Shown: piece after piece, positions 1,090 to 60,261 of the stretch
How the letters are laid out: each line of letters begins with the position of its first letter
Numbering within the stretch: the stretch's first letter is position 1
Assembly: GCF_048403405.1 (NCBI RefSeq)
Contig: NZ_CP183136.1
DNA length: 64,000 bases
Direction: 5' to 3' (one strand)
From: Escherichia coli
GTDB lineage: Bacteria; Pseudomonadota; Gammaproteobacteria; Enterobacterales; Enterobacteriaceae
The notes under the pieces: model-generated
Told to the model about the DNA's origin: nothing
The model's input: the letters and a program-made list of their open reading frames with translations, nothing else
The model's database searches: none
Translations under genes and position numbers: made by a program

Positions 1090-1445
1090 AACAGGTTGGT
1101 GGTTCTCACCACCAAAAGCACCACACCCTACGCAAAAACAAGTTTTTGCTGATTTTTCTTTAATATCATAGAGTAGTATATGAAAAATTAGTATTGTCTT
1201 AACTCTCTTTATGATATTTAAAAAAGCGGTCGTCGACGCAGCTACAGCAACGCGCCGACACCGCTTTGTAGGGGTGGTACTGACTATTTTTATAAAAAAC
1301 ATTATTTTATATTAGGGGTGCTGCTAGCGGCGCGGTGTGTTTTTTTATAGGATACCGTCTAGGGGCGCTGCTAGCGGTGCGTCCCTGTTTGCACTATGAA
1401 TTCTAGTGTTTCGAAATTAACTTTGTTTTATGTTTAAAAAAGGTA
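1090..1445. other. oriT: Origin of transfer (oriT); predicted nic site on the minus strand near 1122/1123
   Basis: Minus strand reads GCGTAGGGTGT-GGTGCTTTT, the F/R100-type nic motif; sits between the transglycosylase gene and traM; AT-rich tracts. Confidence 0.8.
1310..1392. promoter_or_regulatory. Direct repeats consistent with TraM binding sites upstream of traM
   Basis: AGGGGTGCTGCTAGCGGCGCGGTG and AGGGGCGCTGCTAGCGGTGCG read as near-identical direct repeats. Confidence 0.5.
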
Positions 1446-1452
1446 ATATCTA

Positions 1453-1836
1453 ATGGCTAAGGTGAATCTGTATATCAGCAATGATGCTTATGAAAAAATA
1501 AACGCGATTATTGAAAAACGTCGACAGGAAGGGGCAAGAGAAAAAGATGTCAGTTTTTCAGCAACGGCTTCAATGCTTCTTGAACTGGGTCTTCGTGTAT
1601 ATGAGGCTCAGATGGAGCGCAAAGAGTCTGCATTTAATCAGGCCGAGTTTAATAAACTACTTCTTGAATGCGTTGTAAAAACACAGTCATCAGTAGCGAA
1701 AATTTTGGGTATTGAGTCTCTCAGTCCTCATGTCTCAGGAAATCCAAAGTTTGAATATGCCAATATGGTTGAAGATATCAGAGAGAAGGTGTCGGCTGAG
1801 ATGGAAAGGTTCTTTCCAAAAAATGATGATGAATAA
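1453..1836 (+). CDS. traM: TraM, oriT-binding relaxosome accessory protein
   Basis: 127-aa ORF whose sequence matches F-type TraM; immediately downstream of oriT. Confidence 0.95.
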   Translation: MAKVNLYISNDAYEKINAIIEKRRQEGAREKDVSFSATASMLLELGLRVYEAQMERKESAFNQAEFNKLLLECVVKTQSSVAKILGIESLSPHVSGNPKFEYANMVEDIREKVSAEMERFFPKNDDE

Positions 1837-8747: not shown

Positions 8748-11375
8748 GTGAATAACCCACTTGAGGCCGTCACTCAGGCGGTTAACTCCCTCGTCACAGC
8801 ACTGAAACTGCCTGACGAATCCGCAAAGGCCAATGAAGTTCTGGGCGAAATGAGCTTCCCGCAGTTCAGCCGTCTGCTGCCGTACCGTGATTACAACCAG
8901 GAATCCGGTCTGTTCATGAATGACACCACGATGGGCTTTATGCTGGAAGCCATCCCCATCAATGGGGCGAATGAGTCCATTGTGGAGGCCCTCGATCACA
9001 TGCTGCGCACCAAACTGCCGCGCGGTATTCCGTTGTGTATCCATCTGATGTCCAGTCAGCTGGTTGGTGACAGGATTGAATACGGGCTGCGTGAGTTCTC
9101 CTGGTCAGGTGAACAGGCTGAACGGTTTAACGCCATTACCCGGGCCTATTATATGAAAGCGGCAGCGACACAGTTTCCGCTGCCGGAGGGGATGAATCTG
9201 CCCCTGACCCTGCGCCATTACCGGGTGTTTATCTCGTACTGTTCTCCTTCGAAGAAAAAAAGCCGGGCCGACATTCTGGAAATGGAAAACCTGGTGAAAA
9301 TCATCCGGGCGTCGTTACAGGGGGCCAGTATCACCACACAGACGGTGGATGCACAGGCCTTTATCGATATTGTCGGGGAGATGATTAACCATAACCCGGA
9401 CTCCCTGTACCCGAAAAGACGTCAGCTGGACCCGTATTCTGATCTGAATTATCAGTGTGTGGAGGACAGTTTTGATCTGAAAGTCCGGGCTGATTACCTG
9501 ACGCTGGGCCTGCGTGAGAACGGCAGGAACAGCACGGCCCGCATCCTGAATTTCCATCTGGCCCGTAACCCGGAAATCGCCTTCCTGTGGAACGTGGCCG
9601 ACAACTACAGCAACCTGCTGAACCCGGAACTGTCCATCTCCTGTCCGTTCATCCTGACGCTGACTCTGGTGGTGGAAGACCAGGTGAAAACCCACAGCGA
9701 AGCCAACCTGAAGTACATGGACCTGGAGAAAAAGTCGAAGACCTCCTATGCCAAATGGTTTCCGTCCGTGGAGAAAGAGGCGAAGGAGTGGGGGGAACTG
9801 CGTCAGCGGCTGGGCTCCGGTCAGTCCTCCGTGGTGTCCTACTTCCTCAACATCACAGCATTCTGCAAGGACAATAATGAAACGGCGCTGGAAGTGGAGC
9901 AGGACATCCTGAACAGCTTTCGTAAAAACGGTTTTGAGCTGATTTCACCGCGCTTTAACCACATGCGCAATTTCCTGACCTGCCTGCCCTTTATGGCCGG
10001 GAAAGGGCTGTTTAAACAGTTGAAAGAGGCCGGAGTGGTTCAGCGCGCAGAGAGCTTTAATGTTGCCAACCTGATGCCGTTAGTGGCGGATAACCCCCTG
10101 ACACCGGCAGGTCTGCTGGCACCCACCTACCGTAACCAGCTGGCGTTTATCGATATTTTCTTCCGGGGGATGAATAACACCAACTACAACATGGCGGTCT
10201 GTGGCACCTCCGGGGCCGGTAAAACCGGGCTGATACAGCCACTTATCCGCAGCGTGCTGGACTCCGGAGGCTTTGCCGTGGTGTTCGACATGGGGGATGG
10301 ATACAAGTCCCTGTGTGAGAACATGGGCGGGGTGTATCTGGACGGTGAAACCCTGCGTTTTAACCCGTTTGCGAACATCACCGATATTGACCAGTCAGCG
10401 GAGCGTGTCCGTGACCAGTTGTCAGTGATGGCCAGCCCCAACGGTAACCTGGATGAAGTGCATGAAGGTCTGCTGTTGCAGGCGGTCAGAGCCTCCTGGC
10501 TGGCCAAAGAGAACAGAGCACGTATTGATGACGTGGTGGATTTCCTGAAAAACGCCAGTGACAGCGAGCAGTATGCCGAGTCACCGACTATCCGCAGCCG
10601 TCTGGACGAAATGATTGTGCTGCTTGACCAGTACACTGCCAACGGCACTTACGGCCAGTATTTTAACTCTGATGAGCCGTCCCTGCGGGATGACGCAAAA
10701 ATGGTGGTGCTGGAGCTGGGCGGACTGGAAGACCGTCCGTCACTGCTGGTTGCGGTGATGTTCTCCCTGATTATCTACATCGAGAACAGGATGTACCGCA
10801 CGCCGCGTAACCTCAAGAAACTGAACGTTATTGATGAAGGCTGGCGTCTGCTGGACTTCAAAAATCACAAGGTCGGTGAATTTATTGAGAAAGGCTACCG
10901 TACGGCCCGCCGTCATACCGGTGCCTATATCACCATCACACAGAACATCGTCGACTTTGACTCTGATAAGGCCTCCAGTGCTGCCCGCGCGGCATGGGGT
11001 AACTCCTCCTACAAAATTATCCTCAAACAGAGTGCGAAGGAGTTCGCGAAATACAACCAACTGTATCCGGACCAGTTCCTGCCACTGCAGCGCGACATGA
11101 TTGGTAAGTTTGGTGCGGCCAAAGACCAGTGGTTCAGTTCCTTCCTGCTGCAGGTGGAAAACCATTCCTCCTGGCACCGTCTGTTTGTGGACCCGTTAAG
11201 CCGCGCCATGTACAGCTCTGACGGCCCGGATTTTGAGTTTGTGCAGCAGAAGCGTAAAGAGGGGCTGAGTATTCATGAGGCAGTGTGGCAGCTGGCGTGG
11301 AAGAAGTCAGGGCCGGAAATGGCTTCGCTGGAAGCCTGGCTGGAAGAACATGAGAAATACAGGAGTGTGGCATGA
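8748..11375 (+). CDS. traC: TraC, T4SS ATPase (VirB4-like)
   Basis: 875-aa ORF, GTG start, Walker A GTSGAGKT; matches F TraC along its length. Confidence 0.97.
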   Translation: MNNPLEAVTQAVNSLVTALKLPDESAKANEVLGEMSFPQFSRLLPYRDYNQESGLFMNDTTMGFMLEAIPINGANESIVEALDHMLRTKLPRGIPLCIHLMSSQLVGDRIEYGLREFSWSGEQAERFNAITRAYYMKAAATQFPLPEGMNLPLTLRHYRVFISYCSPSKKKSRADILEMENLVKIIRASLQGASITTQTVDAQAFIDIVGEMINHNPDSLYPKRRQLDPYSDLNYQCVEDSFDLKVRADYLTLGLRENGRNSTARILNFHLARNPEIAFLWNVADNYSNLLNPELSISCPFILTLTLVVEDQVKTHSEANLKYMDLEKKSKTSYAKWFPSVEKEAKEWGELRQRLGSGQSSVVSYFLNITAFCKDNNETALEVEQDILNSFRKNGFELISPRFNHMRNFLTCLPFMAGKGLFKQLKEAGVVQRAESFNVANLMPLVADNPLTPAGLLAPTYRNQLAFIDIFFRGMNNTNYNMAVCGTSGAGKTGLIQPLIRSVLDSGGFAVVFDMGDGYKSLCENMGGVYLDGETLRFNPFANITDIDQSAERVRDQLSVMASPNGNLDEVHEGLLLQAVRASWLAKENRARIDDVVDFLKNASDSEQYAESPTIRSRLDEMIVLLDQYTANGTYGQYFNSDEPSLRDDAKMVVLELGGLEDRPSLLVAVMFSLIIYIENRMYRTPRNLKKLNVIDEGWRLLDFKNHKVGEFIEKGYRTARRHTGAYITITQNIVDFDSDKASSAARAAWGNSSYKIILKQSAKEFAKYNQLYPDQFLPLQRDMIGKFGAAKDQWFSSFLLQVENHSSWHRLFVDPLSRAMYSSDGPDFEFVQQKRKEGLSIHEAVWQLAWKKSGPEMASLEAWLEEHEKYRSVA

Positions 11376-20448: not shown

Positions 20449-23217
20449 ATGAAGTTTATGTGATTGCCGGTGGTGAATGGTTGCGGAATAACCTGAACGC
20501 CATTGCCGCCTTTATGGGAACCAGGACGTGGGATTCCATTGAAAAAATTGCTCTCACCCTGTCTGTTGTTGCGGTGGCCTTTATGTGGGTACAGCGGCAC
20601 AACGTGATGGATTTGCTGGGCTGGGCGGCGGTGTTTGTGCTTATCAGCCTGCTGGTTAATATCCGTACGTCGGTGCAGATTATTGATAACAGTGACCTGG
20701 TCAAAGTCCATCGGGTGGATAATGTGCCGGTCGGACTGGCGATGCCACTTTCACTGACGACCCGTATCGGGCATGCAATGGTGGCCAGTTACGAGATGAT
20801 CTACACGCAACCGGACAGTTTCACCTACAGCAAAACGGGGATGCTGTTTGGCGCAGAACCTGGTATGCAAAAAGCACCGACTTTTTGTCCCGCAATCCGG
20901 AAATCGCCAATCTTTTTCAGGATTATGTGCAGAACTGTGTGATGGGGGATATTTACCTGAACCACAAATACACGCTGGAGGAGCTGATGGCCTCCGCTGA
21001 TCCCTACACGCTGATTTTTTCCCGCCCCAGTCCGCTGCGGGGCGTTTATGACAGCAATAATAATTTCGTGACCTGTAAGGACGCGTCGGTTTCGCTGAAA
21101 GACAAGCTGAATCTGGACACACAGACGTGGCGGCAAAACCTGGCATTATTATGTGCAGCAGATATTTGGCGGTCAGCCCGGATCCGGACCTGTTATTCAG
21201 TGCAACTGGTTGAGTGACAGTTACCGTTATTTCTACGGCTCCAGCCAGTCTGCCAGTCAGATCATGCGCCAGAACGTCACCATGAATGCGCTGAAGGAGG
21301 GTATCACCAGTTATGCAGCCCGTAACGGTGACTACCGCCAGCCTGGTGAATCTGGCCACCACGTCATCGATGGAGAAGCAACGTCTGGCACATGTCTCCA
21401 TTGGTCATGTGGCTGATGCGAAACACTGCCGATGGCGCAGACCATTCTGGTGGGCATTACCATCGGTATTTTCCCGCTCCTGGTACTGGCGGCTGTCTTC
21501 AACAAACTGACGCTGTCTGTTCTGAGAGGCTATGTGTTTGCCCTGATGTGGTTGCAGTCATGGCCAATGTTGTATGCCATTCTGAACAGCGCCATGACAT
21601 TTTATGCGAAGCAGAATGGTGCACCGGTGGTGCTCTCGGAAATTTCACAGATACAGCTGAAATACTCCGATCTGGCTTCCACTGCCGGGTATCTTTCCAT
21701 GATGATACCCGCCATTATCCTGGATGATGGTCAGAGGCCTTGGCGCCGGTTTTTCCAGCGTGTACAGCCATTTCGCTTCCTCTGCTATCAGCCCGACTGC
21801 CAGTGCGGCAGGCAGTGTGGTTGACGGTAATTACTCCTACGGCAACATGCAGACGGAAAACGTGAACGGCTTCAGCTGGAGCACCAACAGCACCACGTCG
21901 TTTGGTCAGATGATGTACCAGACCGGCAGTGGCGCAACTGCCACACAGACCCGTGACGGTAATATGGTGATGGATGCAAGCGGAGCGATGTCCCGTTTAC
22001 CGGTTGGTATCAATGCAACGCGTCAGATTGCAGCGGCACAACAGGAAATGGCCCGGGAGGCGTCGAACAGAGCAGAAAGCGCCCTGCATGGTTTCAGCAG
22101 CAGTATTGCCAGTGCCTGGAACACGCTCAGTCAGTTTGGTTCTAACCGGGGGAGCAGTGATTCTGTCACCGGTGGCGCTGACAGCACCATGAGTGCACAG
22201 GACTCCATGATGGCCAGCCGTATGCGCAGTGCAGTGGAAAGCTATGCGAAGGCGCATAATATCAGTAATGAGCAGGCGACTCAGGAACTGGCATCAACAG
22301 GTTCTAGGTTCTCGTCTGGCGGAATGTATGCAGATGCTCATGCTGAATGGGGGATTAAACCTGAAATTCTTGGTGTTGGTGGTGGGGTTGGTGTCAGAGG
22401 CGGGTTTAAGGGAAGTCTTGGATGCGAACGGATGATGACTCACATTCTGCAAGTAGTGGCAGCAGAGCTACCCATGATGCTCGCCATGATATTGACGCTA
22501 AAGCCAGTACAGGACTTTAAAGAAGCCAGCGATTACTTTACCAGTCGCAAGGTCAGTGAGTCCGGCAGCCATACTGACAATAATGCTGACTCCCGGGTGG
22601 ACCAGTTGTCTGCAGCCCTGAACTCAGCGAAACAGAGTTACGACCAATACACGACGAATATGACCCGCAGCCATGAATATGCGGAAATGGCCTCCCGTAC
22701 TGAAAGCATGAGCGGGCAGATGAGTGAAGACCTGTCGCAACAGTTTGCACAGTATGTGATGAAACGCGCACCGCAGGATGCAGAAGCTATTCTGACAAAT
22801 ACCAGTTCGCCGGAGATTGCAGAACGTCGTCGGGCGATGGCATGGTCTTTTGTGCAGGAACAGGTACAGCCTGGTGTTGATAATGCCTGGCGGGAATCCC
22901 GTGGCGATATTGGTAAAGGAATGGAGAGCGTACCTTCGGGTGGTGGCAGTCAGGATATTATTGCTGACCATCAGGGACATCAGGCCATTATTGAGCAAAG
23001 AACGCAGAACAGTAATATCCGTAATGATGTAAAACATCAGGTTGATAATATGGTCACAGAATATCGTGGCAATATCGGAGATACTCAGAACAGTATCCGT
23101 GGCGAGGAAAATATTGTAAGACGGGCAGTATTCTGAACTGCAAAATCATCATAAAACAGGAGGCATTATCTACAGAATAATAAATATAATGAAGAGCAAG
23201 AAACGTCAGAAGATTAA
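20445..23217 (+). pseudogene. traG: traG (mating-pair stabilisation / entry exclusion), frame-disrupted in several places
   Basis: GTG at 20445 (MNEVYVIAGG...); TraG-like translation is split over ORFs 20283-20942, 20885-21217, 21153-21416, 21432-21824 and 21724-23136; 3' end approximate. Confidence 0.75.
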
Positions 23218-23824: not shown

Positions 23825-24556
23825 ATGAAAACAAAAAAATTGATGATGGTTGCACTGGTCAGTTCCACTCTGGCCCTTTCAGGGTGTGGTGCGATGAGCA
23901 CAGCAATCAAGAAGCGTAACCTTGAGGTGAAGACTCAGATGAGTGAGACCATCTGGCTTAAACCCGCCAGCGAACGCACGGTATTTCTGCAGATCAAAAA
24001 CACGTCTGATAAAGACATGAGTGGGCTGCAGGGCAAAATTGCTGATGCTGTGAAAGCAAAAGGATATCAGGTGGTGACTTCTCCGGATGCAGCCTACTAC
24101 TGGATTCAGGCGAATGTGCTGAAGGCCGATAAGATGGATCTGCGGGAGTCTCAGGGATGGCTGAACCGTGGTTATGAAGGCGCAGCTGTTGGTGCAGCGT
24201 TAGGTGCCGGTATTACCGGCTATAACTCAAATTCTGCCGGTGCCACACTCGGTGTAGGCCTTGCTGCTGGTCTGGTGGGTATGGCTGCAGATGCGATGGT
24301 GGAAGATGTGAACTATACCATGATCACGGATGTGCAGATTGCAGAGCGTACTAAGGCAACGGTGACAACGGATAATGTTGCCGCCCTGCGTCAGGGCACA
24401 TCAGGTGCGAAAATTCAGACCAGTACTGAAACAGGTAACCAGCATAAATACCAGACCCGTGTGGTCTCAAATGCGAACAAGGTTAACCTGAAATTTGAAG
24501 AGGCGAAGCCTGTTCTCGAAGACCAGCTGGCCAAATCAATCGCAAATATTCTCTGA
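23825..24556 (+). CDS. traT: TraT, surface-exclusion outer-membrane lipoprotein
   Basis: 243-aa ORF with lipobox LALSGCGAM; matches TraT. Confidence 0.95.
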
Positions 24557-24820
24557 TTATCTTCCGGAGGCTGGTCTGACCGGCCTCCTGACTGACGCCT
24601 CGCTTTGCTCGTTGTCCAACCCCGGAAAGAAATAAAATAAATTTTATTTCTCCCCGGCGTTTCCGAAATAAATATGAAAACACTGAGCGGTTGTGCAAAT
24701 TCTTTGTGCGACCGTGAAGTGTTGCCGGCGAAGCCCGGAATTCTGAACGTGATTATTGAATCTTATTGCGATACGATGTGAATAATCAGTCCGACTGACT
24801 TTTTTCTTCGGAATATCATC

Positions 24821-27155
24821 ATGAGTTTTAACGCAAAGGATATGACCCAGGGCGGTCAGATTGCGTCCATGCGTATCCGCATGTTCAGCCAGATCGCCAA
24901 TATCATGCTTTACTGCCTGTTTATTTTTTTCTGGATACTCGTTGGTCTGGTTTTATGGGTAAAAATAAGCTGGCAGACGTTTGTGAACGGCTGTATTTAC
25001 TGGTGGTGTACCACGCTGGAAGGCATGCGGGATTTAATCAAGTCCCAGCCGGTATATGAGATCCAGTATTACGGCAAAACCTTCCGGATGAACGCTGCTC
25101 AGGTACTGCATGATAAATATATGATTTGGTGCGGAGAGCAGCTATGGTCCGCATTCGTTCTGGCCACAGTTGTGGCACTGGTTATTTGCCTGATTACCTT
25201 CTTTGTTGTCTCCTGGATTCTGGGGCGTCAGGGTAAACAACAGAGCGAAAATGAAGTCACAGGTGGTCGTCAGCTGACAGACAATCCGAAAGACGTTGCC
25301 CGGATGCTGAAAAAAGACGGCAAGGACTCCGATATCCGGATTGGCGACCTGCCGATTATCCGGGATTCCGAAATCCAGAACTTCTGTCTGCACGGCACGG
25401 TCGGGGCCGGTAAGTCGGAGGTTATCCGTCGTCTGGCCAACTACGCCCGTCAGCGCGGTGATATGGTGGTGATTTATGACCGTTCAGGGGAATTTGTTAA
25501 AAGTTACTATGATCCCTCCATCGATAAAATCCTGAATCCGCTGGATGCCCGCTGTGCCGCATGGGATTTGTGGAAGGAGTGCCTGACACAGCCGGATTTT
25601 GATAATACCGCAAATACTCTGATCCCGATGGGTACAAAAGAGGACCCGTTCTGGCAGGGTTCAGGACGTACCATTTTTGCGGAAGCGGCGTACCTGATGC
25701 GTAATGACCCCAACCGCAGCTACAGCAAACTGGTGGACACACTGCTTTCCATCAAAATCGAAAAACTGCGTACCTTCCTGCGTAATTCACCGGCGGCCAA
25801 CCTGGTGGAAGAGAAAATCGAGAAAACGGCGATTTCCATCCGTGCTGTGCTGACCAACTACGTGAAAGCCATCCGTTACCTGCAGGGGATTGAGCATAAC
25901 GGTGAGCCCTTCACCATCCGTGACTGGATGCGTGGTGTCCGGGAAGATCAGAAAAACGGCTGGCTGTTTATCTCATCGAACGCCGACACCCATGCCTCCC
26001 TGAAGCCGGTGATCTCCATGTGGCTGTCCATTGCCATTCGTGGTCTGCTGGCAATGGGAGAAAACCGTAAACGTCGTGTGTGGTTTTTCTGTGACGAGTT
26101 ACCCACGTTACACAAACTGCCGGATCTGGTGGAGATCCTGCCGGAAGCCCGTAAGTTCGGTGGCTGTTATGTGTTTGGTATCCAGTCCTATGCCCAGCTG
26201 GAAGATATCTACGGTGAGAAAGCGGCGGCCACGCTGTTTGACGTCATGAACACCCGTGCTTTTTTCCGTTCTCCCGAGCCATAAGATTGCAGAGTTCGCT
26301 GCCGGTGAGATTGGTGAGAAAGAGCACCTGAAAGCCAGCGAGCAGTATTCCTACGGTGCTGATCCGGTACGTGACGGGGTATCGACCGGTAAGGATATGG
26401 AGCGTCAGACGCTGGTCAGTTATTCCGACATTCAGTCTCTGCCGGATCTGACCTGCTATGTCACTCTGCCCGGACCGTATCCGGCAGTAAAACTCTCTCT
26501 GAAATATCAGGCACGACCGAAGGTCGCTCCGGAGTTTATTCCGCGTGACATCAACCCGGAAATGGAGAACCGTCTGAGTGCCGTACTTGCCGCAAGGGAA
26601 GCAGAAGGTCGTCAGATGGCCAGCCTCTTCGAACCGGAGGTTGCCTCCGGAGAAGATGTGACTCAGGCTGAACAGCCACAACAGCCACAACAGCCACAAC
26701 AGCCACAACAGCCACAACAGTCACAACAGCCACAACAGCCACAACAGCCACAACAGCCACAACAGCCACAACAGCCACAACAGCCACAACAGCCACAACA
26801 GCCACAACAGCCACAACAGCCACAACAGCCACAACAGCCACAACAGCCACAACAGCCACAACAGCCACAACAGCCAGTGTCTCCTGCCATCAACGATAAG
26901 AAGTCAGATGCAGGTGTGAGTGTTCCGGCAGGGGGGATCGAGCAGGAGCTGAAAATGAAACCGGAAGAAGAGATGGAACAGCAACTGCCACCCGGGATCA
27001 GTGAATCCGGTGAAGTGGTGGATATGGCCGCTTATGAGGCATGGCAACAGGAAAATCATCCGGACACCCAGCAGCAGATGCAGCGTCGTGAAGAGGTGAA
27101 CATTAATGTGCACCGGGAGCGCGGGGAGGATGTTGAGCCGGGAGATGATTTCTGA
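24821..27155 (+). pseudogene. traD: traD (coupling protein), frameshifted near 26275 as sequenced
   Basis: ORF 24821-26284 has Walker A GTVGAGKS and ends [11 protein letters not shown]; the TraD C-terminal region with the QQP repeat continues in another frame (ORF 26256-27155). Confidence 0.85.
26673..26870 (+). repeat. Tandem 9-bp repeat (CAGCCACAA, about 22 units) encoding the TraD QQP tract
   Basis: Repeat units read directly; one variant unit CAGTCACAA. Confidence 0.9.
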
Positions 27156-30100
27156 TGTTGAGTTTCAGCGTTGGTTAAATCGGCAGGCAGTGCCGGAAAC
27201 TATTACACCGACAAGGATAATTACTATGTGCTGGGCAGCATGGGAGAACGCTGGGCTGGTCAGGGGGGCTGAACAGCTTGGGACTGCAGGGCAGCGTCGA
27301 TAAGGATGTTTTTACCCGTCTTCTGGAGGGCAGGCTGCCGGACGGAGCGGATTTAAGCCGCATGCAGGATGGCAGTAATAAGCATCGTCCCGGCTACGAC
27401 CTGACCTTCTCCGCCCCCAAAAGTGTCTCCATGATGGCCATGCTCGGGGGCGATAAACGCCTGATTGATGCACATAACCAGGCCGTGGATTTTGCTGTCC
27501 GTCAGGTGGAGGCGCTGGCTTCCACACGGGTGATGACGGACGGACAGTCAGAAACGGTGCTGACCGGTAATCTGGTGATGGCACTGTTTAACCATGACAC
27601 CAGTCGCGATCAGGACCCACAGTTACACACGCATGTAGTGGTGGCTAATGTCACGCAGCATAACGGCGAGTGGAAGACACTGAGCAGTGACAAAGTGGGG
27701 AAAACCGGATTTATCCGAGAACGTGCTACGCGAACCGGATTGCGTTCGGGAAGATCTATCAGAGTGAGTTACTGTCAGCGCAGGTTGAGGCGCTGGGTTA
27801 TGAAACCGAAGTGGTCGGTAAGCACGGTATGTGGGAGATGCCGGGCGTACCGGTGGAGGCCTTTTCCAGTCGTTCACAGGCTATCAGGGAGGCCGTCGGT
27901 GAAGACGCCTCGCTGAAATCCCGGGATGTGGCGGCACTGGATACGCGAAAATCCAAACAGCACGTCGATCCGGAAATCAGAATGGCTGAATGGATGCAGA
28001 CGCTGAAGGAAACCGGGTTCGACATCCGGGCATATCGTGACGCGGCGGATCAGCGTGCGGAGACCCGCACGCAGGCGCCCGGGGCTGTTTCACAGGAGGG
28101 GCCGGATGTGCAGCAGGCGGTGACACAGGCCATTGCCGGATTAAGTGAACGAAAAGTGCAGTTTACGTACACGGACGTGCTGGCCAGAACGGTCGGTATA
28201 CTGCCGCCGGAAAATGGTGTGATTGAACGGGCACGCGCCGGTATCGATGAGGCCATCAGTCGTGAGCAGCTTATCCCCCTCGACCGTGAGAAGGGGCTGT
28301 TCACATCAGGAATTCATGTGCTCGATGAGCTGTCCGTCCGGGCACTCAGTCGTGACATCATGAAACAGAACCGGGTGACCGTACATCCGGAGAAAAGTGT
28401 CCCCCGGACGGCTGGTTACAGCGATGCGGTCAGTGTTCTGGCACAGGACCGTCCGTCGCTGGCCATTGTGTCCGGGCAGGGCGGTGCAGCCGGGCAGCGT
28501 GAGCGGGTGGCTGAACTGGTCATGATGGCCCGGGAGCAGGGGCGGGAGGTGCAGATTATCGCTGCTGACCGTCGCTCGCAGATGAACCTGAAGCAGGATG
28601 AACGGCTGTCCGGTGAGCTGATAACCGGACGTCGTCAGCTGCAGGAGGGCATGGTCTTCACGCCGGGCAGTACTGTTATCGTCGACCAGGGCGAAAAACT
28701 CTCCCTGAAAGAGACGTTAACCCTGCTGGACGGTGCCGCACGTCATAACGTACAGGTCCTGATAACCGACAGCGGGCAGCGAACCGGTACAGGCAGTGCG
28801 CTGATGGCCATGAAGGATGCCGGGGTGAACACGTATCGCTGGCAGGGCGGAGAACAGCGACCGGCAACCATCATCAGTGAACCGGACCGGAATGTCCGCT
28901 ATGACCGGCTGGCCGGAGATTTTGCGGCCAGCGTGAAAGCCGGAGAAGAGAGCGTGGCACAGGTCAGCGGGGTACGGGAACAGGCCATACTGACACAGGC
29001 CATTCGCAGTGAGCTGAAAACACAGGGCGTGCTCGGACACCCGGAGGTGACCATGACCGCCCTGTCACCGGTCTGGCTGGACAGCCGGAGCCGTTATCTG
29101 CGGGATATGTACCGACCGGGGATGGTGATGGAGCAGTGGAACCCGGAGACACGCAGTCATGACCGCTATGTTATCGACCGGGTGACGGCGCAGAGTCACA
29201 GCCTGACCCTGCGGGATGCGCAGGGCGAAACGCAGGTGGTGCGTATTTCCTCCCTGGACAGCAGCTGGTCGCTGTTCCGGCCGGAAAAAATGCCGGTGGC
29301 AGACGGCGAGCGACTGAGGGTGACAGGGAAAATTCCCGGACTCCGCGTCTCCGGCGGTGACCGCCTGCAGGTGGCATCCGTCAGTGAAGATGCGATGACG
29401 GTTGTTGTGCCGGGGCGGGCTGAACCGGCCACCCTGCCTGTGGCTGATTCACCGTTCACGGCACTGAAGCTGGAGAACGGCTGGGTGGAAACGCCCGGGC
29501 ATTCCGTCAGTGACAGTGCGACGGTGTTTGCCTCCGTCACACAGATGGCAATGGACAACGCCACCCTGAACGGTCTGGCCCGCAGCGGTCGTGATGTCCG
29601 GCTGTATTCCTCACTGGATGAAACCCGTACTGCGGAAAAACTTGCCCGCCATCCCTCCTTTACGGTGGTTTCTGAGCAGATAAAGGCGCGGGCCGGTGAG
29701 ACATCGCTGGAAACCGCTATCAGTCTGCAGAAAACCGGGCTGCACACGCCGGCACAGCAGGCCATTCATCTGGCCCTTCCTGTGCTGGAAAGTAAAAACC
29801 TGGCCTTCAGCATGGTGGACCTGCTGACAGAGGCGAAGTCGTTTGCTGCAGAAGGAACCGGTTTTACTGAACTGGGAGGGGAAATCAATGCGCAGATAAA
29901 ACGCGGTGACTTACTGTATGTGGATGTGGCAAAAGGCTATGGCACAGGCCTGCTGGTTTCTCGTGCGTCGTATGAGGCAGAAAAAAGTATTCTTCGCCAT
30001 ATTCTCGAAGGTAAGGAGGCGGTCACGCCGCTGATGGAGAGAGTACCCGGCGAACTCATGGAGACGTTAACGTCGGGACAGCGTGCCGCCACCCGTATGA

Positions 30101-32433
30101 TACTGGAAACGTCCGACCGTTTCACGGTGGTACAGGGTTATGCCGGTGTGGGTAAGACCACACAGTTCCGGGCGGTGATGTCAGCCGTGAACATGCTGCC
30201 GGCGAGTGAGCGTCCCCGAGTTGTGGGGCTGGGGCCCACGCACCGTGCGGTCGGTGAGATGCGCAGCGCCGGCGTGGATGCACAGACGCTGGCGTCCTTT
30301 CTGCATGACACGCAGCTGCAGCAGCGCAGCGGAGAAACGCCGGATTTCAGCAACACGCTGTTCCTGCTCGATGAGAGCTCAATGGTGGGCAATACCGACA
30401 TGGCACGGGCATACGCCCTGATTGCGGCCGGTGGCGGTCGTGCCGTGGCCAGTGGTGACACGGACCAGCTGCAGGCCATCGCGCCCGGTCAGCCTTTCCG
30501 TCTCCAGCAGACGCGCAGTGCTGCCGATGTGGTCATCATGAAGGAGATTGTGCGTCAGACGCCGGAACTGCGGGAGGCGGTATACAGCCTGATTAACCGG
30601 GATGTGGAAAAGGCACTGTCCGGGCTTGAGAGTGTGAAACCGTCTCAGGTGCCACGTCTGGAGGGCGCATGGGCACCGGAGCACTCCGTGACGGAGTTCA
30701 GTCACAGCCAGGAAGCGAAACTGGCAGAAGCGCAGCAGAAGGCGATGCTGAAAGGTGAGACTTTTCCGGATGTCCCCATGACACTGTATGAAGCCATTGT
30801 CCGCGACTATACCGGCAGGACACCGGAAGCACGGGAGCAGACGCTGATTGTCACGCACCTGAATGAGGACCGGCGCGTACTGAACAGCATGATTCATGAT
30901 GCACGGGAAAAGGCCGGTGAGCTGGGGCAGGAGCAGGTCATGGTGCCTGTCCTGAACACAGCGAATATACGTGACGGGGAGCTGCGTCGTCTCTCCACCT
31001 GGGAGAATAACCCGGATGCCCTTGCCCTGGTGGATAGTGTGTATCACCGGATTGCCGGTATCAGCAAGGATGACGGGCTGATAACCCTGGAGGATGCGGA
31101 AGGTAACACGCGGCTGATTTCGCCCCGGGAGGCGGTGGCTGAAGGTGTCACACTGTACACCCCGGACAAAATCCGGGTGGGGACCGGCGACCGGATGCGC
31201 TTCACGAAGAGTGACCGGGAGCGCGGTTATGTGGCCAACAGCGTCTGGACGGTGACAGCGGTTTCCGGTGACAGTGTCACGCTGTCAGACGGACAGCAGA
31301 CCCGGGTGATTCGCCCCGGCCAGGAGCGGGCAGAGCAACATATTGACCTGGCTTATGCCATCACCGCCCACGGTGCGCAGGGGGCGAGTGAAACCTTTGC
31401 CATCGCGCTTGAAGGCACGGAAGGTAACCGGAAACTGATGGCCGGCTTTGAGTCAGCCTACGTGGCCCTGTCGCGTATGAAGCAGCATGTGCAGGTGTAC
31501 ACCGATAACCGTCAGGGCTGGACGGATGCCATTAACAATGCCGTACAGAAAGGAACTGCCCACGATGTGCTGGAGCCGAAACCGGACCGGGAGGTCATGA
31601 ATGCGCAGCGGCTGTTCAGTACGGCACGGGAACTGCGGGACGTGGCGGCAGGCCGTGCCGTTCTCCGTCAGGCAGGGCTGGCCGGGGGAGACAGCCCTGC
31701 ACGGTTTATTGCACCGGGACGTAAATATCCGCAGCCGTATGTGGCACTGCCGGCGTTTGACCGTAACGGCAAGTCAGCTGGTATCTGGCTGAACCCACTG
31801 ACCACGGATGACGGAAACGGGCTGCGGGGATTCAGTGGTGAAGGACGGGTGAAAGGCAGCGGGGATGCGCAGTTCGTGGCCCTGCAGGGCAGCCGTAACG
31901 GAGAGAGCCTGCTGGCTGATAATATGCAGGATGGCGTCCGGATTGCCCGTGATAATCCTGACAGCGGTGTGGTGGTGAGAATTGCCGGTGAAGGTCGTCC
32001 GTGGAATCCCGGTGCCATCACCGGTGGCCGCGTGTGGGGGGATATCCCGGATAACAGCGTCCAGCCGGGGGCCGGAAATGGCGAACCGGTCACGGCAGAG
32101 GTACTGGCACAGCGGCAGGCTGAAGAGGCCATCCGCCGTGAAACGGAACGCCGCGCAGATGAAATTGTCAGGAAAATGGCAGAGAACAAACCTGACTTGC
32201 CGGACGGCAAAACAGAGCTGGCTGTCAGGGATATTGCCGGGCAGGAACGTGACCGGACTGCCACTTCTGAACGGGAAACCGCACTGCCGGAGAGTGTGCT
32301 GCGTGAATCACAACGGGAGCGGGAAGCGGTCCGGGAGGTTGCCCGGGAAAATCTGCTGCAGGAGCGTCTGCAGCAGATGGAGCGGGATATGGTTCGTGAC
32401 CTGCAGAAAGAGAAAACCCTGGGCGGAGACTGA
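27155..32433 (+). pseudogene. traI: traI (relaxase-helicase), N-terminal roughly 650 nt frame-disrupted; remainder intact
   Basis: ATG at 27155 overlaps the traD stop but hits TAA after 7 codons; relaxase-domain residues are spread over three frames (ORFs 27106-27303, 27278-27916); ORF 27811-32433 (1540 aa) has helicase motif GYAGVGKT. Confidence 0.85.
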
Positions 32434-34781: not shown

Positions 34782-35353
34782 AAAAGCCTCCTTCACACTA
34801 AAGGAGGCGGAAAAATAAGGCTTCTCTGAAACCTTCTTCCATACCCGGCAGAAGAAGGTTATAAAAATTTATAACACATTCACCGGCCTGGATTAAAGGG
34901 GGAAGGAAAATGAACGGAACAGGGCGTGATTCGCAAAACTCCGGGGTATGGCGCTACCGGCAGGTCGGACGCCGGGCTGTCCGGCTGGAAGTCAGGGGGA
35001 CTGGCCGGGAGCCGCTGAGGCATGGCTACGGGCTGCGCAGTCTGCTCCCCGGACAGACTGGCAGCAGTTTGCCCGAAAAAGGGCTGAACACTGCCACCGG
35101 CGCTGCCGGGGAAGGGTGTAACGAAAAAGCAGCCTTCATTACTCCAGGGATTCAGAAGGCTGAATAATGCATGAGATTTGCTTTTTTTAATATCCGGTCG
35201 GAAAGTATGACCGGACAGTTCTGAGTAGCACAGAGTTTTTTCCATATTAAGTCGTGATTTTATATTTTGTGATTAATTTCACAAAATAAGGTGTTATTCA
35301 GTGTGTGCTGCGATATTCAGGATTACCTGAAATACAGGTGCCATTTATCTGAT

Positions 35354-36119: not shown

Positions 36120-36710
36120 ATGAAGCTGATTATTTTTATTCTCATTGTTCTGATTATTGCAGCGTTACTTATCCGGATTATCCTCAAAAGTGTAAATCAG
36201 CATTCTCCTTTGCTGATGCAGTTGCATGCGGCAGGTATACGGACCGGTGATGCAGAGCGAATACTGTCCGGCGGTGAATACTGGCAACGTCAGAAGACGC
36301 TGCTGACAGAAAGGGAAGTCAGTTTTATGAAAGGACTGTTCAGAATTGTGGATATGAAGCGGTGGTATCTGTGTCCGCAGGTACGGGTCGCGGATATCGT
36401 CCAGCTGAACGGGAATATCCGGCCACGATCACGCCAGTGGTGGCAGTTATTCAGGATGGTGTCTCAGTGGCATGTTGATGTGGTTATCGTTGAGCGGCGT
36501 TCGTTCAGTATTGTTGCAGCAGTAGAGCTGGATGATGCCAGCCATTTACGACCGGAACGCAGACGCCGGGATATTCTTCTGGAAGAGGTTCTGAGGCAGG
36601 CTGGTATTCCGTTGCTCAGAAGCCACGATGCCAGAAAACTGCTGCAGATGACCGGAGAATGGCTGAATACAACAGGAACTGATCAGCAATCACCGGAACA
36701 TCGTAGCTGA
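36120..36710 (+). CDS. Membrane-anchored hypothetical protein, possibly DUF2726 / nuclease-fold-like
   Basis: N-terminal TM helix; C-terminal region with D..E-type acidic motifs (VDVVIVERR); family assignment from recall only. Confidence 0.55.
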   Translation: MKLIIFILIVLIIAALLIRIILKSVNQHSPLLMQLHAAGIRTGDAERILSGGEYWQRQKTLLTEREVSFMKGLFRIVDMKRWYLCPQVRVADIVQLNGNIRPRSRQWWQLFRMVSQWHVDVVIVERRSFSIVAAVELDDASHLRPERRRRDILLEEVLRQAGIPLLRSHDARKLLQMTGEWLNTTGTDQQSPEHRS

Positions 36711-36949
36711 CGCCTTCGCGTTGCTCAGTTGTCCAACCCCGGAAACGGGAAAAAGCAAGTTTTCCCCGCTCCCGGCGTTTCCATAACTGAAAACCATACT
36801 ATTTCACAGTTTAAATCACATTAAACGACAGTAATCCCCGTTGATTTGTGCGCCAACACAGATCTTCGTCACAATTCTCAAGTCGCTGATTTCAAAAAAC
36901 TGTAGTATCCTCTGCGAAACGATCCCTGTTTGAGTATTGAGGAGGCGAG

Positions 36950-37269: not shown

Positions 37270-37390
37270 TGTGGCTGGCCACGCCGTAAGGTGGCAGGGA
37301 ACTGGTTCTGATGTGGATTTACAGGAGCCAGAAAAGTGAAAACCCCGATAATCTTCAGCAAGTTTGGCGACTAAGAAGAAGATTAACGGG
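37270..37390 (-). ncRNA. copA: CopA antisense RNA region (approximate)
   Basis: Position between copB and tap on the opposite strand as in R1/R100; ends not determined. Confidence 0.35.
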
Positions 37391-37442
37391 GCTAACAAGA
37401 AACCGCATAGAAGCTGTTGCTCTATGCGGGGAGTATAGTTAT

Positions 37443-38700: not shown

Positions 38701-39083
38701 TTCACTGCCTGTCCTGTGGACAGACAGATATGCACCTCCCACCGCAAGCGGCGGGCCCCGACCGGAGCCATTTTAGTTACAACACTCAAATACAAGCACC
38801 GGGAAAACCCCAGTCCAGCGCAGAACTGAAACCACAAAGCCCCTCCTCATAACTGAAAAGCGGCCCCGCCCCGGCCCGAAGGGCCGGAACAGAGTCGCTT
38901 TTAATTATGAATGTTGTAACTACATCATCATCGCTGTCAGTCTTCTGGCTGGAAGTTCTCAGTACACGCTCGTAAGCGGCCCTGACGGCCCGCTAACGCG
39001 GAGATACGCCCCGACTTCGGGTAAACCCTCGTCGGGACCACTCCGACCGCGCACAGAAGCTCTCTCATAGCTGAAAACGGGTA

Positions 39084-39217
39084 TAGTCTGGCAGGGCAAG
39101 GGATGGGTAAGGTGAAATCTATCAATCAGTACCGGCTTACGCCGGGCTTCGGCGGTTTTACTCCGGTATCACATGTAACCACAGCGTGCCGCCTTCCATG
39201 CCGCTGGCGCGGCATAA
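39084..39217. repeat. Copy of a short element (GGTAAGGTGAAA..CAGTACCGGCTTACGCCGG..GCCGCCTTCCATGCCGCTGGCGCGGCATAA) repeated near 47.7 kb in the same orientation
   Basis: Near-identical stretch at 47724-47815 and a diverged copy at 419-494; contains hairpin CCGGCTTACGCCGG. Confidence 0.6.
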
Positions 39218-47257: not shown

Positions 47258-47467
47258 TCAGATATGTGAACCACTTCCGCCGCTGCCACCGTTTCCACCA
47301 CTACAACCGTTGCTGCAACCACCACAACCGCCACCTTGACCACCGCAGCTACCGCCGCCGCCGCCGCCGCCACCACCACCAATGCCAACACCTAATGGAG
47401 ACTGGCGTGATAATTTAAGAGCATCAACGGACAAAACTACACCAAATTCACTCGCTTTTAATTCCAT
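47258..47467 (-). CDS. mcbA: McbA, microcin B17 precursor peptide
   Basis: 69-aa ORF with leader then Gly/Ser/Cys-rich core (GGGGGGGGGGSCGGQGGGCGGCSNGCSGGNGGSGGSGSHI). Confidence 0.95.
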   Translation of the reverse strand: MELKASEFGVVLSVDALKLSRQSPLGVGIGGGGGGGGGGSCGGQGGGCGGCSNGCSGGNGGSGGSGSHI

Positions 47468-47723: not shown

Positions 47724-47815
47724 GTCTGGCAGGGCCGGGGGTGGGTAAGGTGAAACCTGTCAATCAGTACCGGCTTACGCCGGTATCATATGCAACAACT
47801 GAGTGCCGCCTTCCA
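47724..47815. repeat. Second copy of the element at 39084-39217, shorter by an internal gap
   Basis: Shares GGTAAGGTGAAA..CAGTACCGGCTTACGCCGG..GCCGCCTTCCAT in the same orientation. Confidence 0.6.
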
Positions 47816-47996
47816 TATCATATCATTTGCCCGTTTCCCGCCGTGCAGATCCGGTTTCCGGCTGAAGTGGATCCAGACCTGATTTGTTGCTGAGTATCGG
47901 TAAAAGAGCGGCTTATAATCTATTCTGAAACATGGCAAGTGAATCTGGGCTGTATAATTCCGGCAAGTGTCATCTGTATTTAAAGGTCGTGTGAGT

Positions 47997-50347: not shown

Positions 50348-50660
50348 ATGTCGCCGGGCTCCTCTTTTTACTGCGCCGGCTGACGCGGCGCGGCATAAAC
50401 GCTGCCTGTGGTCAGTGTCCCGCGTCCGGTGGGCACGGGACGGGCGCTTTTACCGCTCCCGGCTGGCGTCGGTGACAGTGTACGCCAGCCTGTCGCCCTT
50501 TTCTGATGAACGCCCTTCAAGCCGCTTTCGCGGCATAGCCTTGCCGTCAGAAAGACGACGGCTGCGGTATTCCACGGTCGGCCTGACCCGTTACCGGACG
50601 CGGTGAACAGCCCACAGGCAGCGGGGAACGGGCGCCACAGGGGCGCCCTCCCGATGCTCC
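50348..50660 (+). repeat. Large repeat, family A copy 1 (about 315 bp, GC-rich, structured); candidate Frpo-type single-strand promoter
   Basis: Near-identical to 51652-51970; ORF-track entries 50277-50606 and 51567-51911 are the same sequence translated. Confidence 0.7.
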
Positions 50661-51651: not shown

Positions 51652-51970
51652 GATGTCGCCGTGCTCCTCTTTTTACTGCGCCGGCTGACGCGGCGCGGCA
51701 TAAACGCTGCCTGTGGTCAGTGTCCCGCGTCCGGCGGGCACGGGGCGGGCGCTTTTACCGCTCCCGGCTGGCGTCGGTGACAGTGTACGCCAGCCCGTCG
51801 CCCTTTTCTGATGAACGCCCTTCAAGCCGCTTTCGCGGCATAACCTTGCCGTCAAAAAGACGACGGCTGCGGTATTCCACGGTCGGCCTGACCCGTTACC
51901 GGACGCGGTGAACAGCCCACAGGCAGCGGGGAACGGGCACCACAGGGGTGCCCTCCCGGTGCCCTCTGTA
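51652..51970 (+). repeat. Large repeat, family A copy 2; candidate single-strand promoter upstream of the methyltransferase operon
   Basis: Near-identical to 50348-50660. Confidence 0.7.
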
Positions 51971-55789: not shown

Positions 55790-56395
55790 GTTTTTTCCTG
55801 ATGTTATGTTTCTGTGGTTACTGTTCTTCTTCTTCCTCTTCTTTCCGTTCCTCTCCTGTTTATGCCTTTTCCGGGCGTCCCCCTGGCGGGGCGGGCTGTC
55901 GTGAACGGAGCCAGCGGAGCTGTCTCCGCCCTGGCGGGCTTCCATCCCTGACGCAAAACCCCGGGTTTGCAGCGACCGGAACGGTCGCGCCACCCCTGTC
56001 GCGCCGTGGCCTGCGCTCCCGGCATCCCGGCAAAAAGACGCCGGGATGTAAGGAGCAACGCCGTTTCGCAAACCGCGCTTCACGTCGTTGCAGCGGGTCC
56101 CTGCTCATTGCCTGCCGGGTGCCACACACCCGTATGAGTCCCTGTCGCCGGGGGCTGATACAGCCACAACCTGCCGCACTGACTGTCCAGGGTAAATGAA
56201 CAGCCCACAAAATTTTTTACCCAAAACCCGGTAAAAAATTTTGCGTTCTGCCCAGGACAGGTGCGTCAGGCCGTGGCAGTGATGCCCCTTGCGGCGAAGG
56301 TTCTCAAACGGGTGAAGTTCATACCACAGGGAATACAGCAGCAGGTTCCCGCGAAACGTCAAAACCGCGGCTCCCGAAACTCAACGGGTGATGTT
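55790..56395 (+). repeat. Large repeat, family B copy 1 (about 600 bp); Frpo-type single-strand promoter candidate
   Basis: Long near-identity with 59040-59695, including hairpin CAAAATTTTTTACCC..GGGTAAAAAATTTTG. Confidence 0.7.
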
Positions 56396-56625
56396 CTTTA
56401 AAAATCAGGATTTATTTCAGGCTCCGGCAATACGCATTTATGTGTTCTGTCAGTCATCCGGCTGGCAGGTAATGAAAACGCAGGAACAGAAGGAGGAAAA
56501 CACCGGAAAGCGTCAGATGCAGATATGAAAAAAAGCAGGTCAGGGACCTGCTTAATCCACGCCGTAAGAATTGTGCGACCAATTTTGACGGCATTGTTAA
56601 CCAATTTGTCATAAGGAATCCATTT

Positions 56626-56856
56626 ATGACTGTAAGCATTGTTTCACCTTCCGCAGCGGCTGTAAAGCCCCGCCGTCATCCCCGTTTCAGACGCGAAGAC
56701 ATCCCCGCGCCGGAACTTGACCCCGTGCTGAAAGCCTTCGGGCGACACATTGCCCGGAGTTTTCGCCGGGGGCGTGGTGTACACATCCCCGCCATGAAAA
56801 ACACGGCCTTCGGGCAGGTGCTCCGCACACTCGAACTGAAACGCGCTTTTAACTGA
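56626..56856 (+). CDS. Hypothetical small basic protein
   Basis: 76-aa ORF, first after the family-B repeat. Confidence 0.4.
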   Translation: MTVSIVSPSAAAVKPRRHPRFRREDIPAPELDPVLKAFGRHIARSFRRGRGVHIPAMKNTAFGQVLRTLELKRAFN

Positions 56857-59039: not shown

Positions 59040-59695
59040 ACTGATGATGTTGTTGTTCCTGCTACTGCTACTGCTACTGCTACTGCTACTGCTACTGCTA
59101 CTGCTACTGCTACTGTTCTTCTTTTTTCTGCTGCTCTGATTACTGTCTGTTTTGTTGTTCTCCTGCTTATGCCTTTTCCGGGCGTCCCCCTGGCGGGGCG
59201 GGCTGTCGTGAACGGAGCCAGCGGAGCTGTCTCCGCCCTGGCGGGCTTCCATCCCTGACGCAAAAACCCGGGTTTGCAGCGACCGGAACGGTCGCGCCAC
59301 CCTTGTCGCGCCGTGGCCTGCGCTCCCGGCATCCCGGCAAAAGACGCCGGGATGTAAGGAGCAACGCCGTTTCGCAAACCGCGCTTCACGTCGTTGCGGC
59401 GGGTCCCTGCCCGTTGTTCTGTCCGGTGCCATTCACCTGTTTAAGCCCCTGTCGCCGGGGGCATAGACAGCCACAACCTGCCGCACTGACTGTCCAGGGT
59501 AAATGAACAGCCCACAAAATTTTTTACCCAAAACCCGGTAAAAAATTTTGCGTTCTGCCCAGGACAGGTGCGTCAGGCCGTGGCAGTGATGCCCCATGCG
59601 GCGAAGGTTCTCAAACAGGTGATGGTGAATACCGGAGGGAACAAAAGGCAGGTCCCCGCAAAACGTCAAAACCGCGGCTCCCGAAACTCAACAGA
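59040..59695 (+). repeat. Large repeat, family B copy 2, upstream of ssb; Frpo-type single-strand promoter candidate
   Basis: Near-identical to 55790-56395 apart from the hexanucleotide tract and a short variable segment. Confidence 0.7.
59059..59115 (+). repeat. Hexanucleotide microsatellite (CTGCTA), about 9.5 units
   Basis: Read directly; absent from the paralogous repeat copy, which has an irregular pyrimidine tract instead. Confidence 0.9.
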
Positions 59696-59733
59696 TGATG
59701 GGGGCTGAAAACATCAACAGAAGGAGACACATC

Positions 59734-60261
59734 ATGGCAGTTCGTGGCATTAACAAGGTCATTCTTGTCGGTCGTCTGGGAAAAGATCCGGAAGTCCGTT
59801 ACATCCCCAACGGGGGCGCAGTGGCAAACCTGCAGGTGGCCACGTCAGAAACCTGGCGCGACAAACAGACGGGGGAAATGAAGGAGCAGACGGAATGGCA
59901 CCGCGTGGTGCTGTTCGGCAAGCTCGCGGAAGTGGCAGGTGAATATCTGCGTAAGGGGGCGCAGGTCTACATTGAAGGCCAGCTTCGCACCCGTAGCTGG
60001 GAAGATAACGGTATTACCCGTTACGTCACCGAAATCCTTGTTAAAACCACGGGCACCATGCAGATGCTGGGGAGTGCACCACAGCAGAACGCTCAGGTGC
60101 AACCGCAGCCTCAGCAGAATGGTCAGTCACAGAGTGCTGACGCGACGAAAAAAGGGAGCGCGAAAACGAAAGGCCGTGGACGTAAGGCTGCGCAGCCGGA
60201 GCCTCAGCCGCAACCACCGGAGGGGGAGGATTACGGGTTTTCAGACGATATCCCGTTCTGA
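59734..60261 (+). CDS. ssb: Plasmid single-stranded DNA-binding protein
   Basis: 175-aa ORF with SSB fold sequence and acidic C-terminal tail DDIPF; ATG at 59734 within ORF 59695-60261. Confidence 0.95.

Follow-up and report, generated by a model that had tools for sequence, protein, structure and literature searches.

A structured, repeated element of F-like plasmid backbones, found after traT and again before copB

Why does the same short, foldable sequence stand directly after traT and again ahead of copB in a 64,000-nt stretch of Escherichia coli DNA (the window, by which we mean the whole stretch analyzed here)? An earlier note on this DNA had called the sequence terminator-like and had proposed that its duplication could mark a past recombination joining the transfer and replication segments of the backbone. 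Here, we describe the element, its relatives on other plasmids and the strand on which it folds, and weigh what these features say about its role.

A discrete element present twice in the window

The two copies, their neighbors and their hairpins are located as follows.

24592..24665, best structure on the minus strand: copy 1 of the element, between traT and traD, in the orientation of the tra genes
36707..36783, best structure on the minus strand: copy 2 of the element, between a DUF2726-family gene and copB
23825..24556, plus strand: traT, upstream neighbor of copy 1 (open reading frame; TraT length and annotation match in other records)
36120..36710, plus strand: DUF2726-family gene, upstream neighbor of copy 2 (open reading frame; annotation of near-identical plasmid records)
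36950..37207, plus strand: copB (repA2), replication regulatory protein, downstream of copy 2 (open reading frame; annotation)
37334-37425, minus strand: CopA RNA (Rfam match)
24618..24661, minus strand: main hairpin (HP2) of copy 1, with a contiguous stem on the minus strand only
36735..36779, minus strand: main hairpin (HP2) of copy 2, with 16 contiguous pairs plus AAC/GTT on the minus strand
24566..24588, plus strand: separate G+C-rich hairpin after the traT stop codon, with 10 pairs on the plus strand, interrupted on the minus strand

Copy 1 begins with CTGACGCC at 24592, 36 nt past the stop codon of traT, and ends in CGTTTCC; in copy 2, the first bases, cTGA, are themselves the stop codon of the DUF2726-family gene, and about 170 nt separate its end from the start codon of copB. 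Both copies have the same orientation within the window and have two exact words in common, the 18-mer GTTGTCCAACCCCGGAAA (at 24611 and 36728), with no further match in the window even when 3 mismatches are allowed, and the 12-mer CCCGGCGTTTCC (at 24653 and 36771), which occurs nowhere else in the window. By simple arithmetic, the chance expectation of a second exact 18-mer in 128,000 positions is ∼2e-6. The alignment of the two copies consists of a left arm of ∼45 nt with two 1-nt indels, a central stretch of ∼25 nt that differs and a right end of 12 identical nucleotides. Covariance models recovered both sites with E values of 1e-16 to 1e-25, copy 1 scoring 73.6 and 76.5 bits and copy 2 scoring 100 and 94 bits with two models; the first of these, derived from an RNAalifold consensus, had an implausible structure and was used for copy counting only, and was replaced by the second, with a hand-specified minus-strand structure. 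Covariance-model search, including runs with the filters off, found no third copy in the 64-kb window. The exact words and the model matches thus confirm the repeat that the earlier note had seen after traT and after the DUF2726-like gene, and the internal inverted repeats that it described are real, being the hairpins at 24618-24661 and 36735-36779; the range it drew from 24567 takes in copy 1 but also the unrelated G+C-rich hairpin at 24566-24588, which lies outside the repeat. Copies 1 and 2 are paralogs, and the element they represent is a discrete ∼74-nt component of the backbone of F-like conjugative plasmids.

In this element, the conserved blocks CTGACGCC, GTTGTCCAAC and CCGGCGTTTC surround a hairpin of ∼20 bp, HP2. 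Read on the gene-sense strand, the order is CTGACGCC, a short variable segment with a weak hairpin, GTTGTCCAAC, the ∼20-bp hairpin and TTTC, the tail after HP2 being CGTTTCC or CGTTTCT. The variable segment can pair back to CTGACGCC in two alternative registers, GCTCAG in type A and GGCGTC in type B. This left hairpin, HP1, was dropped as the defining structure because it is weak or absent in copy 1 and has no strand preference. The base of HP2, AACcCCGG/CCGGcGTT, is conserved, and its interior covaries freely: it is A+T-rich in copy 1 (GAAATAAAAT/ATTTTATTTC) and reads GGGAAAA/TTTTCCC in copy 2, wholly unlike its counterpart.

Several transfer genes of the window have disturbed reading frames. 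The traD gene is read as two overlapping open reading frames (24821-26284 and 26256-27155), the traI frame (region 27155-32433) opens only at 27811 rather than at about 27155, and traJ is split (1970-2212 and 2178-2471); these frameshifts are either transfer-gene pseudogenes or assembly indel errors. Within traD, at 26619-26921, a 9-nt unit is repeated in tandem more than 20 times.

Relatives of the element are found well beyond this plasmid. BLAST with either region, or with the arm alone, returned thousands of plasmid records from Escherichia, Klebsiella, Salmonella, Shigella, Enterobacter, Citrobacter and others, and family members occur on plasmids of Klebsiella, Salmonella, Enterobacter, Kluyvera and Pantoea. 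Matches are present in 3034 of 5426 complete E. coli genomes, at 4729 places on plasmids compared to 29 on chromosomes. R100 carries both copies at the same two positions, with a copy 2 score equal to that of the window. The F plasmid carries the traT copy only, with the same covariance-model score and essentially the same sequence as copy 1 of the window, and has a 732-bp segment in place of the region of the second copy. A single copy, preceding a PLD-nuclease gene and the replicon, is usual in Klebsiella-type plasmids. The element was not found in pCD1 of Yersinia pestis, which has an IncFII-type replicon and no tra region, and the idea that the element is intrinsic to the replicon is weakened by this case of a replicon without it.

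In total, we collected 137 instances, representing 41 distinct variants, from plasmids, genomes and metagenomes, and three more divergent copies (L001, L143B and L165B) were found by covariance model alone. Most instances were retrieved by a pattern requiring CTGACGCC and GTTGTCCAACCCCGG, such that the invariance of both blocks among them is by construction; in the copies retrieved by BLAST or by model, these blocks are conserved, not invariant. The hairpin and the right arm lay outside the retrieval pattern. An exact 15-nt pattern run over the genome collection gave mostly chance matches in unrelated phyla, the real ones being only L010, L014, L040, L061, L105 and L117. The core sequence appeared in no relevant paper of the literature searched, the one match being an unrelated paper on an insect protease. 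It appears, then, that this is a widespread structured element of F-like plasmid backbones that has so far gone undescribed.

The main hairpin is kept paired and tuned to the minus strand

In an alignment of 35 distinct sequences, which was fitted to the minus-strand hairpin model and hence leans towards that strand, standard pairs make up 96.1% of the hairpin cells and wobble pairs ∼8%, and both sides have changed in 9 of the 19 hairpin pairs. The compensatory cells number 74, a count that overstates independent events given that many instances are closely related, and this number was equalled in none of 500 shuffles; when partner columns were slid against each other as a control, pairing fell to 45-66%. 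These changes bear on the idea that the element is a functionless relic, the leftover of an old duplication or the end of a mobile element such as a transposon inverted repeat, kept by plasmid kinship. Many records are indeed near-identical, and the left arm has the words CTGACGC...TCAG in common with the Tn3 inverted repeat. Against this stand the compensatory changes themselves, the retention of the element in contexts that cannot be aligned and in several genera, and the same strand-consistent wobble in all variants, which together leave a relic very improbable.

The energies of the two strands, whose comparison does not depend on the alignment, point in one direction. The minus strand is more stable in 41 of 41 pattern-retrieved variants (mean RNA energy of −27.5 kcal/mol compared to −19.5 on the plus strand; mean DNA energy of −16.6 compared to −11.7), and the same bias holds for 6 of 6 instances retrieved by BLAST, making 47 of 47 tested. 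For the hairpin of copy 1, the values are −23.3 (minus) and −15.7 (plus) kcal/mol as RNA and −14.6 and −10.8 as DNA; for that of copy 2, they are −29.0 and −15.1 as RNA and −14.6 and −8.3 as DNA. The minus strand has this advantage because nearly all departures from Watson-Crick pairing set A against C on the gene strand and thus give G·T or G·U on the minus strand: copy 1 has two such A·C oppositions, each a G·T(U) pair in the minus-strand fold, four interrupt the plus strand of copy 2, and in the minus-fitted alignment there are 53 wobble cells on the minus strand compared to 6 on the plus strand. Natural variants with GG/CC, AA/CC and AAA/TTT at the same positions outline a path from G-C to A-T pairs via a wobble state of the minus strand.

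Copy 2 is the second most minus-biased 60-nt window among 6400 in the whole 64 kb. The most biased one, at 47321-47380, has −8.9 compared to −0.8 kcal/mol (DNA parameters). The hairpin at 24566-24588, with a T·G wobble pair on the plus strand, on which it folds better, serves as an internal control and shows the strand bias to be specific to the element. Together with the Frpo-type repeats described below, taken as a further control, it argues that the bias is not an artefact. Strand-biased mutation pressure could add to the excess of A·C oppositions but would not yield compensated pairs. These data show that selection keeps HP2 paired and tuned to the minus strand.

What the minus strand is in the life of the plasmid can be read from three further features.

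1112..1128, minus strand: F-type nic-site motif GGGTGTGGTGCTTTTGG, just upstream of traM, with the nic sequence of the F oriT
1453-1836, plus strand: traM, near the nic motif
59695-60261, plus strand: ssb, a leading-region gene

Leading-region genes are read from the transferred strand, or T-strand (PMC9849209, PMC11541004), and here ssb and other leading-region genes lie on the plus strand. Given the nic motif on the minus strand and the leading genes on the plus strand, the minus strand is the T-strand; the tra genes are transcribed from it, and it serves as leading-strand template in the IncFII replicon. The productive IncFII fork moves rightward here, as indicated by a Ter pair and by published work (PMC10331603). 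With forks moving rightward and the minus strand as leading-strand template, a signal for lagging-strand synthesis in vegetative IncFII replication can be discarded. The Ter-like pair lies just past repA1, in opposite orientations, at 38774-38783 (minus) and 38913-38922 (plus), with the sequence GTTGTAACTA, and matches the terRL/terRR fork trap of R1; the element itself is no Ter/Tus site, the likeness of GTTGTCCAAC to GTTGTAAC being superficial and the real pair lying at 38774/38913.

Other structured repeats share the window. Two repeats of ∼590 nt (55807-56393 and 59114-59700), 90-96% identical, form very stable stem-loops, the second ending at the start codon of ssb; in a folding scan of 49-64 kb, their minus strand came out 8-9 kcal/mol more stable than the plus strand. 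They occupy the expected place of, and probably are, single-strand promoters of the Frpo1/Frpo2 type. A dispersed direct repeat with a GCCGC-N4-GCGGC hairpin occurs at 39086-39217, 47724-47816, 463-494, 50507-50538 and 51812-51843. One of its copies lies ∼400 bp past the expected oriR, where R1 has a primase G-site; as a family, these copies may be priming signals on the same strand.

One rival reading is that the element works in mRNA, with its hairpin and CGUUUCY acting as a weak intrinsic terminator, an attenuator or a 3′ stabilizer that marks the ends of expression units (traT and the end of the tra operon) and insulates copB/repA from tra read-through. It shares with Rho-independent terminators and REP-like stabilizers the form of an intergenic hairpin 3′ of co-oriented genes with a short T-containing tail. 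In favor of an mRNA role, it always lies 3′ of a co-oriented gene, its TTTC tail is conserved, the plus-strand hairpin still reaches −14 to −28 kcal/mol, and the place before the copB promoter suits an insulator. Moreover, F lost copy 2 along with a functional RepFIC replicon, and a 1987 paper by Jalajakumari et al. names terminator activities after traT of F in its title, whichever hairpin is concerned. Yet the plus-strand hairpin is always the weaker one, in 47 of 47 tested variants, and the two to four oppositions of the common variants read A·C there, which is not the wobble expected of an RNA of that strand. A terminator scan gave no site at either copy, and no U-tract follows the stem. 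Copy 1 lies inside the tra operon, with traD downstream in the same operon, and in several plasmids the next same-strand gene (a PLD-nuclease gene and others) starts 26-41 nt downstream of the element, leaving no room for a promoter, such that transcription must pass through; these close start codons argue against an efficient plus-strand terminator. A separate plus-biased hairpin, at 24566-24588, already lies 3′ of traT. Its wobble pair falls on the mRNA strand, which makes it more plausible than the repeated element as the 3′ structure of traT mRNA. We therefore find a role in mRNA doubtful. The element is probably not a terminator for traT, the "terminator-like" label of the earlier note is weak on the same three grounds (no U-tract, close downstream genes and a better hairpin on the opposite strand), and annotation as the traT terminator is unwarranted as it stands. 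It also departs from REP sequences in being almost confined to plasmids (29 chromosomal compared to 4729 plasmid places). A MITE or REP identity was rejected on other grounds as well, namely a terminal complementarity of only 5 nt (ACGCC/GGCGT), no target duplication, two copies in 64 kb and a single orientation.

The minus bias could also reflect antisense RNA, the hairpin and its flanks being a stabilizing, processing or protein-binding structure of minus-strand transcripts that run into the ends of traT or of tra-distal genes. The bias itself and the ∼8% of G·U pairs, typical of RNA helices, are in line with this, as is the fact that the Rfam matches AS-traG, AS-traI, AS-pc01, AS-pc02, FinP and CopA all lie on the minus strand of the window; where a hok-family locus follows, the antisense RNA promoter known from hok/sok loci points leftward just downstream of the element. 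On the other hand, the right flank differs in 21 contexts, and no promoter is thus conserved with the element; no minus-strand promoter-like site was seen near either copy, no U-tract follows either hairpin on the minus strand, and Rfam gave no match to the element at gathering score and chance-level matches only at E ≤ 10. We consider this reading unlikely. The antisense RNA matches themselves, all on the minus strand, are AS-pc02 (35018-35201), AS-traI (30012-30088), AS-traG (21167-21255) and AS-pc01 (56530-56631), first described in plasmid pHK01 (Rfam); FinP, the traJ 5′ UTR and CopA are also Rfam matches in the window.

A promoter within the element was rejected, the candidate TTGTCC-N15-TAAAAT occurring in copy 1 only and not being conserved, with promoter scans empty. 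By eye, and set against the familiar consensus sequences, the element is likewise a poor match to a DnaA box, an IHF site, XerCD/dif, the RfaH ops site and, comparing GGGGTTGG with GGGGTGTGG, a TraI nic-like site.

Gene contexts and module junctions

Every instance lies directly 3′ of a same-strand gene, and all are co-oriented with their neighbors. The upstream genes include traT, the DUF2726 gene, a DsbA-like gene, finO, a gene for a 102-aa protein and others, and downstream lie traD (sometimes after an extra gene of 245-267 aa), copB, a hok-family locus, a PLD nuclease and others. Across the 137 instances, these flanks form 21 upstream and 21 downstream sequence clusters, joined in many pairings. 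Similarity is at background right outside CTGACGCC on the left and within two bases past GGCGTTTC on the right, and at least five unrelated upstream genes terminate at the TGA that belongs to the element.

Such junctions raise the possibility of a recombination site or cassette boundary, that is, the substrate or footprint of module exchange at the boundary of tra region and replicon, perhaps acting on the folded transferred strand as the bottom strand of attC does. The sharp loss of homology on both sides across the 21 by 21 contexts and the reuse of the element's TGA speak for it. In one metagenomic contig (L143), a gene of 337 aa sits exactly between two copies (9936-10013 and 11056-11133), and a related contig (L203), around 1720, has a single copy, with the site unoccupied and no 337-aa gene, a cassette-like arrangement. 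The likeness to integron attC sites extends to following a gene, sometimes giving its stop codon, conserved ends around a variable paired center, a fold on the non-coding strand and AAC...GTT at the hairpin base. The attC consensus is RYYYAAC/GTTRRRY. The left end, GTCCAAC, fits the R″ box RYYYAAC, but the right end, GTTTCCR, neither fits GTTRRRY nor is complementary to the left core beyond the AAC/GTT pair, and the element lacks the GTTRRRY right core, the 7-bp R box, a nearby integrase or attI, and arrays. Identity as an integron attC site was rejected on these grounds.

Further points argue against recombination in general. The element is not accompanied by a recombinase gene, none of the annotated contexts has an adjacent integrase, and plasmids have one or two copies, always in one orientation. 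No hybrid in which traT, the element and copB follow one another exists among the 137 instances, and the lineages of copy 1 and copy 2 differ consistently, from plasmid to plasmid, in left-arm length and stem interior. The sharp edges would also be expected if deletions stop at a constrained element, and the left edge is partly set by the retrieval pattern. A recombination site is therefore improbable in our view, and recombination between copies 1 and 2 in particular was rejected for want of a hybrid context. More speculative still, and a long shot, would be an attC-like site native to F-type backbones that acts on the folded transferred strand during conjugation and swaps element-tailed genes at the tra/replicon boundary; such swapping would account for junctions that are sharp and reassort as well as for the gene with a copy on either side.

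The distinctness of the two lineages across plasmids and the missing hybrid point to an old duplication, not the footprint of a recent join, and the copies are probably ancient, separately conserved lineages rather than a recent recombination scar. Of the earlier proposal that the duplication marks a past joining of transfer and replication segments, what holds is that the element stands at boundaries of backbone modules; what does not is a single event, since this arrangement is no one-off and both lineages are old. Compared with other IncF backbones, as the earlier note had suggested, both copies occur in R100, copy 1 in F and one or both in thousands of records, which is largely the picture of independently conserved copies that the note itself had set against its proposal.

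Two contigs show other events at the element. In L165 (4461-4541), a stretch of 107 bp is deleted between a GTTGCTCAG 9-mer of the DUF2726 coding sequence and a second such 9-mer in the left arm of the element, with loss of the end of the DUF2726 gene and of the first block of the element; the hairpin was kept. In L253, from about 1594, a Tn3-type inverted repeat belonging to a TEM-1 transposon is inserted 19 nt past the element. This repeat contains CTGACGC-TCAG, the same words as the left arm, which is probably a coincidence.

A possible signal on the transferred strand

The reading that we prefer, at a probability of roughly 40%, is that the element serves the transferred strand as a structural signal in single-stranded DNA, with priming as a possible function. 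The element would act as folded single-stranded DNA on the T-strand as it enters the recipient, where HP2 would offer a structure resistant to SSB with conserved single-stranded flanks that could nucleate the priming of complementary-strand synthesis. Synthesis primed on the T-strand would run rightward in window coordinates, such that a start at copy 2 would quickly render copB-repA-oriR double stranded and a start at copy 1 would lead over traD-traI. The A·C oppositions would at the same time weaken the hairpin on the mRNA strand and let operon transcription pass.

Two known kinds of signal offer a comparison. The Frpo/ssi single-strand DNA promoters of the F and ColIb-P9 leading regions resemble the element in being stem-loops of the T-strand, with the same strand bias in this window, and stem-loops of the Frpo type have been put forward as starting points of RNA and DNA synthesis on the single strand that enters (PMC9849209, PMC7690428, PMC12672017). 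Frpo promoters, in contrast, belong to the leading region, measure several hundred nucleotides and have −35/−10 boxes within their stems, and the element has 74 nt, no such boxes and a place inside or at the end of the tra region; the two are not similar in sequence. Measured against Frpo, then, the element has the T-strand orientation, with a stem of ∼20 bp devoid of conserved hexamers and a position after traT or before copB, and the Frpo-like repeats of this window lie at 55.8-59.7 kb, away from both copies. The second kind are the primase- or PriA-dependent ssi sites of the G4 and φX174 types, which, like the element, combine a short hairpin with single-stranded flanks on the template strand and are placed for synthesis into the replicon. 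Eleven ssi sequences were reportedly published by Nomura et al. in 1991. The conserved CTG start and the known consensus of these sites are absent from the element, and a priming role here is putative.

Several observations weigh against a T-strand signal. The element contains no conserved CTG primase start, no −35/−10 boxes and no known primosome-site motif; a CTG follows the hairpin in copy 2, not in copy 1, and has another position in type B variants. A wobble share of ∼8% fits RNA helices better than DNA hairpins, and the strand-biased mutation pressure considered above could contribute to the A·C excess. Co-orientation with neighboring genes holds everywhere, so orientation cannot separate a role on the T-strand from one in mRNA. 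Finally, F, which lacks copy 2, is proficient in conjugation.

In Enterobacteriaceae, resistance and virulence genes travel mainly on F-like plasmids, whose backbone is among the best-studied bacterial DNA. A non-coding element present in over half of complete E. coli genomes has apparently remained unnamed so far. The structural selection that it shows favors the transferred strand, not the mRNA. To our knowledge, structured signals of the incoming strand have so far come only from the leading region (Frpo/ssi). The element is a handy conserved landmark for aligning IncF backbones, and if it were a recombination hotspot, it would help to explain why these backbones are mosaic. If it instead aids the conversion of single-stranded DNA to duplex or primes synthesis across the replicon, it would represent a new step in plasmid establishment and a possible target.
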